Shown here: piece by piece, positions 23,904 to 63,880 of the stretch
How the letters are laid out: each line of letters starts with the position of its first letter
Position numbering within the stretch: position 1 is the stretch's first letter
Source: Dehalococcoidia bacterium
GTDB taxonomy: Bacteria > Chloroflexota > Dehalococcoidia > GIF9 > UBA5629
Assembly: GCA_050011565.1 (NCBI GenBank)
Contig: JBEKIW010000003.1
Coordinates: forward strand, 64,001 to 128,000
Length of the DNA: 64,000 nucleotides
Reading direction: 5' to 3'
The notes under the pieces: generated by a model
The model's input: only the letters and a program-made list of their open reading frames with translations
Databases searched by the model: none
Told to the model about the DNA's origin: nothing
Made by a program: the position numbers and the translations under genes

Positions 23904-24026
23904 GAAAATCCTAATTTCCAAATACCAAACTCTAAACAAATCCAAATAACAAATACCAATGACCAAAATATAATACTTCAAAAATTGGATTTTTAAATTT
24001 GGCGATTATTCGGGATTTAGGATTTC
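23904..24026. repeat. Inverted heptamer-array element, gene-less copy A
   Basis: A/C-rich units (AAAATCC, CAAATAC, CAAACTC, AAATAAC, AAATACC) then T/G-rich units (TTGGATT, GGATTTA, GGATTTC); ends AAATCCTAA...TTAGGATTT. Confidence 0.7.
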
Positions 24027-24037
24027 CGACTGTTCTG

Positions 24038-49437: not shown

Positions 49438-49569
49438 CAAATCTCAAATCTCAATCCCCCAAATCATAAACAATACCAAAAATTTAAATCTCAAACTCGA
49501 AACAATTTTGGTAATTAATATTTGTGATTTTGGACTTATTTGGAGCTCGTGATTTCGAAATTGGATTTT
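49438..49569. repeat. Inverted heptamer-array element, gene-less copy B
   Basis: CAAATCT CAAATCT CAATCCC CCAAATC...TAAATCT CAAACTC then TTTGTGA TTTTGGA...GATTTCG AAATTGG ATTT. Confidence 0.7.
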
Positions 49570-52269: not shown

Positions 52270-52390
52270 CCAATCACCAAATCCTAATGACTAATAATCA
52301 AAAATATTAATGGACTAATAGTTTTGAATTTGGTTTTTCGAATTTTGGTATTGTTTCGGATTTGGAGCTTAGGATTTAAGATTTGAAGTT
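52270..52390. repeat. Inverted heptamer-array element, gene-less copy C
   Basis: CAATCAC CAAATCC TAATGAC TAATAAT CAAAAAT then AATTTGG TTTTTCG AATTTTG GTATTGT TTCGGAT TTGGAGC TTAGGAT TTAAGAT TTG. Confidence 0.72.
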
Positions 52391-54782: not shown

Positions 54783-54884
54783 CAAATCCTAATTATCAAA
54801 ATCCAAAGGTCAAAACACATGTTTGGTTTTTAATGATTTGAATTTAGATATTGTTTGGGATTTGATGCATGGGATTTAGTGCCT
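54783..54884. repeat. Inverted heptamer-array element, gene-less copy D
   Basis: CAAATCC TAATTAT CAAAATC CAAAGGT CAAAAC then GATTTGA ATTTAGA TATTGTT TGGGATT TG...GGGATTTAG. Confidence 0.7.
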
Positions 54885-61624: not shown

Positions 61625-61682
61625 GTTTAGGAAATTGGAATTTGTTTGGGATTTGGGATTTGTAATTTGTGATTTGAAATTT
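61625..61682. repeat. Heptamer-array half element E (T/G-rich arm only)
   Basis: AAATTGG AATTTGT TTGG GATTTGG GATTTGT AATTTGT GATTTGA AATTT. Confidence 0.7.
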
Positions 61683-61737
61683 CCCCCAGGGAGTTGTTTG
61701 AATTATGGTCAATGTAATGTTAATATGACCCGATTAG

Positions 61738-62565
61738 ATGGCAGGCGAGAATAACATAAAGATGCGGATTGAAAAGCTCTGCCTTTCCTTCGGCGGAGTT
61801 AGAGCCCTTATAGATGTAAGTCTCGACGTAAAAGATAAGGCAATTCTAGCTGTTATCGGCCCAAATGGCGCCGGCAAGACCTGCATACTCAACTGCATAA
61901 ACGGCTTCTACAAGCCGCAAGAGGGTGAAATATACTACGAAGGCAAGAAAATCACCCGTCTCCGACCGGATAAGATAGCCAGAATGGGTATAGCCAGGAC
62001 TTTCCAGAACATCGAGCTGTATTCCGGCCTGACAGCCTTAGATAATCTCATGGCTGCCAGGCATGTGTTGATGAAGCAGAGCACAGCCGCGAGCGCTCTA
62101 TATTTCGGTCCCGCCCATAAGGAAGAAATCGAACATCGCCGAGCGGTCGAGGACATCATCGACTTCCTGGAGATAGAGCCGATTAGAAAAAAAGTGGTCG
62201 GCACACTGCCCTACGGAATGCGCAAACGTGTTGAGCTTGGCCGCGCTCTGGCTCTGGAACCGAAAATACTGCTGCTCGACGAACCGATGGCCGGCATGAA
62301 CCTGGAGGAGAAAGAGGACATCGCCCGGTTCATCATAGACATATTCGAGGGGCAGGGAGAAACTTATCCCGAAACACCAGTCCTCAGAGACGGAGTTAGC
62401 TGCATTATTCTGGTGGAGCATGACATGGGAGTGGTGATGGACATAGCCGATAGGATTGCCGTTCTTGATTTCGGGCGCAAGATTGCCGAGGGCACACCGG
62501 AAGAAATCAAAAACAACCCGCAGGTCATATCGGCGTACTTAGGCACAGAAAAAGTTAAAAGTTAA
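61738..62565 (+). CDS. Branched-chain-type ABC transporter ATP-binding protein (LivG-like)
   Basis: GPNGAGKT, RTFQN, LPYGMRKRVEL, LLLDEP, VEHDM. Confidence 0.93.
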   Translation: MAGENNIKMRIEKLCLSFGGVRALIDVSLDVKDKAILAVIGPNGAGKTCILNCINGFYKPQEGEIYYEGKKITRLRPDKIARMGIARTFQNIELYSGLTALDNLMAARHVLMKQSTAASALYFGPAHKEEIEHRRAVEDIIDFLEIEPIRKKVVGTLPYGMRKRVELGRALALEPKILLLDEPMAGMNLEEKEDIARFIIDIFEGQGETYPETPVLRDGVSCIILVEHDMGVVMDIADRIAVLDFGRKIAEGTPEEIKNNPQVISAYLGTEKVKS

Positions 62566-63084
62566 AAACCAAAAGTCAAAAGTACAAATAAAAAATTAAA
62601 AATTATTTCATGCCTTTTAGAGTCATAATATCAGCATAAATTAAATATTAAAAGTTAAAATGCAAAATGATAAGCCAAGATTTAGAGATATGCTCAAAAC
62701 GCGAGTTTACAGTTTTGCGTTGGATATAATCACATTTGTTGACCAATTACCTAAAGGGCAAGTTTCAAGCGTTATCGGTGAGCAATTATTACGGAGTGCC
62801 ACCAGCATTGGAGCCAATGTTGTTGAGTCTCAAGGTGCCGCTTCAAGAAAAGACTATGCTAATTTCTTTCGTCATGCCTTGAAATCAGCTAATGAGACAA
62901 AATTCTGGTTAGGTCTCCTGCGGGATTCAGGTAAAGCGGACAAGATGACAACTGATAAGCTTTTAAAAGAGTCAAATGAATTGGCCAAAATACTGGCTAC
63001 CAGCATCATCACCCTAAAGGGGCGGGGATAATTTTTTAAACTTTTAACTTGAATTTTTGATATTTGAGTTTTGATTTTTGACTT
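62549..63084. mobile_element. Putative cassette: four-helix-bundle gene bracketed by inverted heptamer arrays
   Basis: Left AAAAGTT AAAAGTT AAAAACC AAAAGTC AAAAGTA..AAAAATT AAAAATT; right TTTTAAC..TTTTTGA TATTTGA GTTTTGA TTTTTGA CTT. Mobility is inferred only. Confidence 0.55.
62660..63031 (+). CDS. Four helix bundle protein (TIGR02436/23S rRNA IVP-like)
   Basis: QLLRSATSIGANVVESQGAASRKDY...ALKSANETKFWL...ELAKILATSI. Confidence 0.92.
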   Translation: MQNDKPRFRDMLKTRVYSFALDIITFVDQLPKGQVSSVIGEQLLRSATSIGANVVESQGAASRKDYANFFRHALKSANETKFWLGLLRDSGKADKMTTDKLLKESNELAKILATSIITLKGRG

Positions 63085-63088
63085 ACGT

Positions 63089-63880
63089 TTATAGCCATCG
63101 CTTGCGCCGCTTGTAATGCTTGACTGACCGGTAGCTCTTCTTGGTGCCGACCGCCGATAGGCCCATGTAAAATTCCTTTACGTCTTCGTTATTCCTCAGG
63201 AAATCGGCGGTACCATCGAGCACCACCCGCCCGTTTTCCATGACATAGCCGTAATGGGCGATCTTGAGCGCAATTCTGACATTCTGTTCCACCAGCAAAA
63301 TGGACGTTTTCTTCTCAGTATTGAATCGCTGTATGATGGCATAAATCTCTTCCACCAGCATCGGCGCCAGACCAAGCGACGGCTCATCCAGCATCATAAG
63401 CTTGGGCGCCGACATCATTGCCCGGCCGATGACCAGCATCTGCTGCTCGCCGCCGGAAAGATAGCCGGCAATGTTATGGCGCAGATTTTTAAGCCGCGGA
63501 AAATAGCCATAAACCATGCCCAGGTCTTCTCTAATAGCATGACCGTCTCGTCGGTTATGAGCGCCCACCATAAGGTTCTCCTCAGCAGTCAGATGCCCAA
63601 AGACGCGCCGGCCTTCCAGCGCCTGAACAATACCCAGCTTGCCTATCTCAACCGCACTCTTTTTGTCGATTCTCTGTCCGTCCCACTCAATGCTGCCGTC
63701 AACCACATCCCCCTCTTCAACTTGAAGCAGGCCGGATATGGCTTTGAGCGTGGTGGTTTTGCCGGCACCGTTGGCGCCCAGCAGAGCCACCACAGTGCAG
63801 TCCTCGACAGCCAAAGAGATGCCGTGTAAAACTCTTATCACGTTCAGATAGGCAACTTCGATGCTGTTCAGTCTAAGCAT
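63089..63880 (-). CDS. Branched-chain-type ABC transporter ATP-binding protein (LivF-like)
   Basis: GANGAGKTT, EGRRVF, LSGGEQQML, LDEPSLGLAP, VEQN, C-terminal KHYKRRKRWL. Confidence 0.94.
   Translation of the reverse strand: MLRLNSIEVAYLNVIRVLHGISLAVEDCTVVALLGANGAGKTTTLKAISGLLQVEEGDVVDGSIEWDGQRIDKKSAVEIGKLGIVQALEGRRVFGHLTAEENLMVGAHNRRDGHAIREDLGMVYGYFPRLKNLRHNIAGYLSGGEQQMLVIGRAMMSAPKLMMLDEPSLGLAPMLVEEIYAIIQRFNTEKKTSILLVEQNVRIALKIAHYGYVMENGRVVLDGTADFLRNNEDVKEFYMGLSAVGTKKSYRSVKHYKRRKRWL

Follow-up and report, generated by a model that had tools for sequence, protein, structure and literature searches.

A heptamer-armed gene of the 23S rRNA intervening-sequence family at a livG/livF junction of a Dehalococcoidia bacterium: a probable free-standing cassette

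The closest described relatives of the element treated here are the intervening sequences (IVSs) of 23S ribosomal RNA (rRNA) genes that carry an open reading frame (ORF), for which the protein family, the inverted repeats and, in helix 45 of Coxiella burnetii, heptamer repeats are already in print (excerpts of PMC4990558). An ORF-bearing IVS of Leptospira (Ralph and McClelland 1993) is cited in the same excerpts. There, the Coxiella IVS is described as having tandem heptamers upstream of its ORF, their number varying between strains, and a stem that RNase III cuts at the first heptamer repeat, and the authors argue that the ORF is decaying. Here we describe such an arrangement outside rRNA, in a window of 64,000 nucleotides (nt) from a Dehalococcoidia bacterium (positions 64,001 to 128,000 of contig JBEKIW010000003.1, assembly GCA_050011565.1), in which a four-helix-bundle gene of the PF05635/TIGR02436 family stands between two arrays of 7-nt units, in the gap between two genes for ATP-binding cassette (ABC) ATPases resembling livG and livF. 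We consider it probable that this is a free-standing cassette of the kind known from ORF-bearing 23S rRNA IVSs, which would be transcribed by read-through, fold into a stem, be open to RNase III and spread by homology between arms.

In REPIN-RAYT systems a single-copy Y1 transposase gene is flanked by hairpin repeats dispersed through the genome, and the cyanobacterial short tandemly repeated repetitive (STRR) sequences are dispersed heptamer repeats of unexplained function. Dispersed TAACTGA heptamers in Beggiatoaceae, Cyanobacteria and Bacteroidetes are likewise unexplained in function, and none of the terms "23S", "intervening", "S23" and "helix bundle" came up in a term search of that paper (PMC4679880). 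Avd, the accessory protein of diversity-generating retroelements, and the IVS-protein family are treated as homologous (excerpt of PMC10053308). This family is very large and has been without an assigned function since the first rRNA IVS some thirty years ago; the present locus ties it to the unexplained dispersed heptamer repeats of several phyla. No paper linking free-standing PF05635 genes to flanking heptamer arrays was found in the full texts searched (supplements excluded).

The gene and its heptamer arms

The preliminary description of the window, made from its letters, had reported an A-rich 7-nt array before the gene and an approximate reverse complement after it, and both were located where claimed. 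Tandem Repeats Finder detected a period of 7 on either side, the left array (62550-62605) amounting to 8.1 copies and the right one (63053-63081) to 4.1, and the two outer arms form an inverted repeat (62552-62602 and 63034-63084) of 51 nt with 75% complementarity. Lag-7 identity was 0.76 for the left array and 0.70 for the right one, and none of 10,000 composition-preserving shuffles attained either value, so the periodicity withstood the comparison with shuffled AT-rich sequence that had been proposed as a check. In the whole window only three stretches reach a lag-7 identity of at least 0.70, of which two are the arms and the other is an array at 61628-61676. The local inverted-repeat score was 41 compared with 17.1 ± 2.5 (maximum 30) across 500 shuffles. 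The inner arms (Table 1) form a 13-nt pair with 92% complementarity, and the start motif of the inner left array, with heptamers running into the start codons, is also present in relatives; in both of the subfamilies that we call A and B the array overruns the start codon.

The gap between the livG-like and livF-like genes measures 523 nt and contains a single ORF, 62660-63031 on the plus strand. Family membership of this ORF was found with both profiles, PF05635 (E 4.3e-21, 75.6 bits, cut-off 33.8) and TIGR02436 (E 2.4e-25, 88.8 bits, cut-off 24). The AlphaFold2 model of the 123-aa protein (mean predicted local distance difference test 93.2) shows four helices, and in Foldseek it was closest to 2RLD (template modelling (TM) score 0.80-0.82), next to 2GSC and then to Avd (4DWL, 0.73; 8UB7, 0.74). 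The protein is thus predicted to be a four-helix bundle like 2RLD and 2GSC, which together with the profiles confirms the family named in the preliminary description, and the structural kinship to Avd that had been stated there is reflected in the TM scores. The motif R-x3-S-x3-N-x2-E, printed for the family (excerpt of PMC3936711), is present as R45, S49, N53 and E56; in 22 sequences the last three residues are invariant and R45 is nearly so. For the six of 15 pairs of this gene and its relatives in which dS is unsaturated, dN/dS was 0.07-0.17. These ratios indicate that the protein is under purifying selection, and therefore that it does something.

A leftover Avd of a diversity-generating retroelement, lying beside repeats that would be an unrelated low-complexity spacer or terminator, would account for the likeness of fold to 4DWL and 8UB7, but it is extremely improbable. 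No reverse transcriptase (PF00078) was found in the genome, which is 99.2% complete, the sequence profile of the protein retrieves 2RLD and 2GSC and not Avd, the fold too is nearer to these two, and the periodicity and inverted symmetry lie far beyond shuffles and recur at relatives. A role in a diversity-generating retroelement was rejected on the absence of PF00078. The idea of a HEPN-type RNase was also dropped, as no HEPN protein stands among the Foldseek matches listed. A PADLOC search for a defence system matched no family.

The preliminary description had further proposed that gene and arrays form one unit and that homologous genes would have periodic flanks. A PF05635 search of 41 genomes of the same order (G000, the genome of the window, and others numbered from G001) gave matches in 22, and 30 of the 40 matches were analysed as loci (L numbers). 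At nearly all 30, upstream arrays of about 7 nt with a reverse complement downstream were visible, while the unit varied by locus (GGGGACT, CAGTCGG, AGTCAAT, GTTCTAG, GTGAAGT, TTGCAAG and AT-rich types). Compared with control segments of the respective loci, lag-7 identity lay above their 95th percentile in 26 of 30 upstream and 25 of 30 downstream flanks, in 23 of 30 on both sides, and lag 7 was the best of lags 5-9 in 23 upstream and 26 downstream flanks. The inverted-repeat score lay above the maximum of 28 controls at 17 of the 30 loci.

Beyond the order, 32 plasmid records were matched by tblastn, and ten were picked for taxonomic spread and their arms judged by eye. Inverted heptamer arms were found in six (Nostoc punctiforme, Picosynechococcus, Geminocystis, Riemerella, Leptolyngbya and Azospirillum). 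The Azospirillum copy lies within a 23S rRNA gene (Rfam large-subunit model, 402 bits) and has inverted heptamer arms, and therefore a true IVS has the same anatomy. A single-protein query added loci from Phycisphaerae, Prevotella and a Clostridia metagenome-assembled genome, all three with inverted heptamer arms by eye; the protein of the Phycisphaerae copy is 50% identical and has the AAAAGT-type unit in common with the window. Two other matches of this query, L012 and L015, were already among the 30 loci. Consistent with the proposed unit, gene and arms thus recur together within the order (23/30), on plasmids (6/10) and in further phyla (3/3).

Two plasmid copies lie among CRISPR-associated genes: in Pseudanabaena galeata (L062) the cassette stands between cas6 and cas4, preceded by about 16 AAAAGCT units and followed by arrays of unchanged polarity, and in Picosynechococcus sp. 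PCC 7003 (L064) between cas10/cmr2 and cmr3. Genes of the PF05635/TIGR02436 family have been reported within cas loci (excerpt of PMC3936711), and insertion of the cassette, seen at these two plasmid loci, could explain their presence there.

The absence of rRNA near the cassette, as first described, was borne out by Rfam, which between 61500 and 64000 gave no rRNA and merely mir-208 (E 0.062) and psbNH (E 0.25), far below gathering scores and neither at the arrays. The 23S rRNA gene of the genome is on a different contig (C1:199610-202568, minus strand) and has no large insert, so the window cassette lies outside it; by Rfam none of the 30 loci of the order is in rRNA. An A-type arm at G000:C1:202778-202830 precedes the 23S rRNA gene by about 210 nt and is outside the mature rRNA.

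Table 1. Features of the cassette and its neighbours, in window positions
Feature	Position	Strand	Remarks
livG-like ABC ATPase gene	61738..62565	+	terminal codons (..EKVKS) and stop supplied by left array
Outer left arm	62549..62605	+	about 8 A-rich heptamer units; period 7; member of the dispersed ~55-nt A-type arm module
Fossil of an older four-helix-bundle gene	62598..62640	-	last 10 codons and stop, reads ..ADIMTLKGMK-stop
Inner left array of present copy	62641..62659	+	units continue into first codons (MQND..); direct repeat; inverted pair with 63035-63047
Four-helix-bundle gene	62660..63031	+	123 aa, intact; PF05635/TIGR02436; motif R45-x3-S49-x3-N53-x2-E56
Inner right arm of present copy	63032..63050	+	inverted-repeat pairs
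Outer right arm	63050..63084	+	T-rich heptamer units abutting livF stop; orthologue of the arm on the livF side in relatives
livF-like ABC ATPase gene	63089..63880	-	convergent to livG; C-terminus unaltered by cassette

The ABC neighbours score best against the NCBIfam LivG and LivF models yet under the equivalog cut-offs, and are therefore called Liv-like ABC ATPases here, not proven LivG and LivF. That the left array supplies the EKVKS end of the livG-like gene, as noted early on, agrees with the coordinates and the translation.

Turnover at the livG/livF junction

The preliminary description held that the unit can be inserted and lost, and suggested looking for empty orthologous livG/livF sites in relatives. 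The livF-like protein was searched in the 41 genomes; 17 loci with at least 79% identity were taken, and the 13 with both gene ends in convergent position were compared. Left out of the set were G011 (contig ends), G032 and G003 (no adjoining livG orthologue) and G026 (1.3-kb gap). Three junctions were filled, and two of these are in the opposite orientation: the gene is co-directional with livG in G000 and with livF in G013, where it is broken by a frameshift and a stop, and in G022, where it is open (117 aa). Two junctions consist of a gene-less two-arm hairpin (G008, 90 nt; G007, 125 nt, which retains the reverse complement of an ORF start), two of arms enclosing an unrelated repeat element (G010, 434 nt; G006, 286 nt) and one of the right arm only, beside a livG extended by a Cys-rich tail (G009). 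Two retain a two-unit footprint, namely G023 and G004, in which the livG and livF stops overlap and livG yet ends ..EKVKS-stop. The remaining three, from other genera (G015, G024 and G021), are virgin, 19-33 nt long and array-free, and livG ends there in ..YLGEEA, ..YLGKEA and ..KHSQ before the stop. The livF tail, ..KRRKRWL-stop, is conserved at all 13.

Not every orthologous site was thus filled: among 13 genomes three were virgin and seven scarred, partial or footprint-like. The virgin sites in other genera, together with the other junction states, indicate that the cassette was gained after these genera split, replaced the terminal codons of livG and has since been decaying or lost in most lineages. 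Over evolutionary time the unit was thus both inserted and lost at this junction, as had been suggested, and also replaced.

The left side of the window junction adds a further layer. Between the outer left arm and the inner left array lies the end of an older gene on the minus strand (Table 1), which matches, in both position and sequence, the 3′ ends of the genes that point the other way in G013 (..ATSILTLKGKK-stop) and G022 (..ATSIPTLKGKK-stop), and the present gene has its own full 3′ end and its own short inner arms, inside the older outer arms. A full gene beside a fossil end is impossible by a flip between arms; a new copy in the opposite orientation took the place of the older one. The window copy is a second arrival, enclosed by what is left (outer arms and 3′ fossil) of an opposite-facing predecessor.

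The same fossil bears on a simple invertible switch, in which recombination between the inverted arms would flip the gene and the two orientations would be two states. Such a switch would explain why the gene points with livG in G000 and with livF in G013 and G022, and also opposite-strand joints that were seen in metagenome contigs (below); but it cannot produce the old opposite 3′ end beside a complete new gene, no recombinase is nearby, and the opposite-strand contig X4 is about 85% identical and so probably from another species. We regard it as very unlikely, and inversion between the arms in its simple form is ruled out by the fossil at 62598-62640.

Contigs of four peat and sediment metagenomes were aligned at 85% identity; they are short, possibly from other species, and are taken as weak evidence throughout. 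Right-arm variants 7 or 14 nt shorter were each represented by a single contig, both from one run. A contig connects 62570 with 63038 across the gene, and two connect opposite strands; the joints have short sides. In a variant seen in two runs 62551-62656 is substituted by 25 other letters. These variants fit slippage of units and variation of occupancy and orientation. Metagenome depth was lower over the gene than over the flanks; because conserved ABC genes such as those of the flanks attract sequences of other organisms, this difference was not interpreted.

Further details were observed at single junctions. In G009 (L038) livG is about 45 codons longer and carries two Cys-x2-Cys pairs (zinc-ribbon-like), replacing the left arm. 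In G010 (L036) and G006 (L037), and also at G000:C2:410500-410545, another small repeat lies between or beside heptamer arms; it has 21-nt units with TCACCC and a GTCATCCTGAGCG..GAAGGATC-type motif, and TCACCC arrays occur at five places in G000. In L012 (G001:C6) an A-type cassette abuts the livG-like end and the opposite side is not livF; the best livF match of G001 is 69% identical and lies elsewhere, so L012 is a rearranged or paralogous site and stands outside the junction comparison.

With virgin, filled (in both orientations), broken, scarred and re-colonised states, the junction amounts to a natural experiment, and the window contributes an unusually full account of how a cassette was gained, replaced and lost at a single site.

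Dispersed arms, the predicted stem and a model of spread

The genome of the window contains two copies of the gene, the A-type copy of the window and a B-type copy behind a valS-like gene (G000:C1:60046-60512; L002, 1424-1890), which is broken by an in-frame TAG; the orthologues at the same site in G004 and G011 are intact. The 57-nt left arm of the window matches 21 other stretches of the genome (about 17 separate sites) with 75-90% identity over 32-55 nt, and the alignment of 21 arm copies, the cassette's own two included, reveals an ordered module about 55 nt long. A B-type hairpin as query matches about 23 places. After merging, 21 A-type and 23 B-type places were counted, of which 42 of 44 are intergenic and most gene-less, and the two dispersed arm types are exactly those that flank the two gene copies, so that the gene-less hairpins of the genome match its two gene types. 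B-type places lie at convergent junctions in 9 of 23 cases versus 252 of 1742 genome-wide, with genes called crudely from ORFs. Several gene-less hairpins retain a remnant of the ORF start or stop, and are therefore read as internally deleted cassettes.

In other genomes a heptamer type is present only where a cassette bears such arms, and there also at gene-free places. Overlapping 21-nt pattern matches for GGGGACT numbered 12 in G027 and 0 in the others, those for CAGTCGG 4 in G008 and 2 in G015, for GTTCTAG 20 in G010, 9 in G027 and 1 in G015, and for AGTCAAT 11 in G015 and 1 in G008; reversed-pattern controls gave 0-6 per genome.

Five gene-less B-type hairpins or single arms with AAATCC-type units lie in the window itself (23905-24030, 49439-49529, 52275-52385, 54822-54879 and 61626-61684). 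The first retains a B-type ORF-start remnant, and 52275-52385 retains the stop and the downstream arm.

A stem with the gene in its loop, as proposed in the preliminary description, is predicted by folding of the cassette region and by co-variation in relatives. When 62540-63095 was folded, the arms paired in both the minimum-free-energy and the centroid structure (-132.3 kcal/mol, z -2.84, with 2 of 100 shuffles as good), so that the terminal inverted repeats are predicted to form an ORF-enclosing stem as in 23S IVSs. Across nine B-type cassettes a long-range stem of 22 pairs is paired in 94.4% of 196 cells versus 25-57% with a slid partner, and 16 cells carry double changes (0 of 500 shuffles), four columns 7 apart switching from C-G to U-A together. 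For seven A-type cassettes RNAalifold predicts a long-range stem of 15 pairs.

The nearest upstream ORF is co-directional with the gene at 27 of 30 loci, the nearest downstream ORF at 16 of 28. No promoter-like site was found in 62300-63300, and the sole candidate for an intrinsic terminator, on the minus strand within the ORF, is no more than expected from shuffles. Upstream co-directionality and the lack of a promoter-like site point to read-through transcription. We favour a model in which the cassette, having no promoter of its own, would be transcribed from a co-directional upstream gene and the arms in the transcript would zip into an AU-rich stem of about 50 bp enclosing the ORF. RNase III, a gene for which is encoded in the genome, could cut this stem and free an ORF-bearing RNA as in rRNA IVSs; by analogy, the window cassette may be processed in this way.

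At the DNA level, the cassette would spread without a dedicated transposase. Recombination or gene conversion between dispersed homologous arms would copy it into hairpin sites, either orientation being allowed since each arm is an inverted copy of the other, breakage of hairpins might trigger such copying, and the gene would be lost again by deletion between arms. Dozens of homologous arms, two orientations and the nested replacement fit such copying, and movement by arm homology is what we infer from them. The protein's role could be, as a leading guess, to bind its own repeat RNA or DNA. The lack of a transposase noted in the preliminary description held as far as it was tested: no transposase or recombinase was found among the ORFs adjoining the cassette, and the genome contains no Y1 transposase (PF01797), this family and PF00078 being the only transposase-type families searched genome-wide. 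RAYT-type mobilisation was rejected on the absence of PF01797. By eye, comparison with the virgin sites showed no target-site duplication at the junction.

Several observations weigh against this reading. The B-type double changes may derive from one event between two clades, and kinship inflates their counts. The arms of the window are 75% complementary to each other, and the left arm resembles other arms of the genome (up to 90%) more than it does its partner. At 20 loci, a crude wobble test gave 52 G-U-type and 47 A-C-type mismatches besides 147 transversions, with no sense-strand bias, and a better-registered B-type alignment leans towards RNA only weakly (13 versus 5). L010 and L023 have weak or no arrays, and the downstream array of L015 is direct, not inverted; among the ten plasmid loci, Pseudanabaena and Gemmatirosa have arrays of the same polarity on both sides, that of Nostoc PCC 7120 is one-sided and Calothrix is weak. 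Since direct or one-sided arrays occur in Pseudanabaena, Gemmatirosa, L015 and Nostoc PCC 7120, a stem is not obligatory. The figure of 27 of 30 co-directional upstream ORFs overstates the number of independent cases, as it stems from crude ORF calls at loci of which several are orthologues of one another. Movement by arm homology, finally, is a model, and no recombination intermediate or recent transfer was observed.

The loci with direct or one-sided arrays, which still accompany the gene, lend some weight to another explanation, to which we give tentative credence. The arrays might primarily be binding sites of their own four-helix-bundle protein, each subunit of which would occupy a single 7-nt unit of single-stranded RNA or DNA, so that the period of 7 would be a ruler set by the protein and not a by-product of the stem. 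Through such binding the protein would control its own translation, shield the transcript or help the cassette to be copied. It would fit that the period is retained across loci and phyla despite changing unit sequences, that the array overruns the start codon in both subfamilies and that the protein is under purifying selection. 2RLD and 2GSC were deposited in the PDB with five chains, the sole hint of a pentamer for the 123-aa protein, and the title of 8UB7 places Avd in an RNA-protein complex. The gene-less arrays of each genome match the arm type of its gene copies, but this is equally expected if gene-less arms are decayed cassettes, and in G000 the 23 B-type places persist although the B-type gene is broken.

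A bolder extension, which we consider unlikely, joins a pentamer and the 7-nt arrays into a new class of transposase-free mobile element. Its protein, each subunit reading a single heptamer of a hairpin RNA or DNA, would promote or protect copying of the cassette into hairpins of the same type; the rRNA IVS would then be one landing site among many, and as its footprints the element would have left the dispersed heptamers of cyanobacteria, Bacteroidota, Beggiatoaceae and Chloroflexota.

Comparison with known systems

The sequence comparisons support the view that the window cassette, our preferred reading, is of the ORF-bearing IVS kind, located outside rRNA, heptamer-armed and accompanied by matched gene-less scars. 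Like the ORF-bearing 23S IVSs in the published excerpts, it has a gene of the same family, terminal inverted repeats around the ORF and tandem heptamers upstream that vary in number. It differs in its site: the window copy lies between protein-coding genes and, like all 30 copies examined in the order, outside rRNA. In the portion of PMC4990558 referred to above, the Coxiella stem is a substrate of RNase III, the part of our model that may apply here by analogy only, and the Coxiella ORF is argued to be decaying, whereas the protein of the window is under purifying selection.

Avd shares the predicted four-helix-bundle fold at the TM scores given above. In contrast to a diversity-generating retroelement, the window gene is accompanied by no reverse transcriptase, template or variable repeat.

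The overall layout resembles that of REPIN-RAYT systems, in that a single gene stands between inverted copies of a repeat of which further, gene-less copies are scattered over intergenic sites of the same genome, and the genome of the window has two gene types matched to two repeat types. It differs in that the flanked gene is a PF05635 four-helix bundle and not a Y1 transposase, that the repeats are tandem 7-nt arrays and that many of the gene-less copies retain ORF remnants and are read as decayed cassettes. One gene-bearing copy among many internally deleted hairpin copies is also the relation between an autonomous parent and its miniature inverted-repeat transposable elements; unlike in these, no transposase adjoins the cassette, and no target-site duplication was seen by eye.

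The TAACTGA repeats (PMC4679880) are likewise tandem 7-nt repeats of intergenic DNA; they often lie directly before start codons and are patchy across phyla. The arrays of the window differ from them in being the arms of a gene cassette and of its scars.

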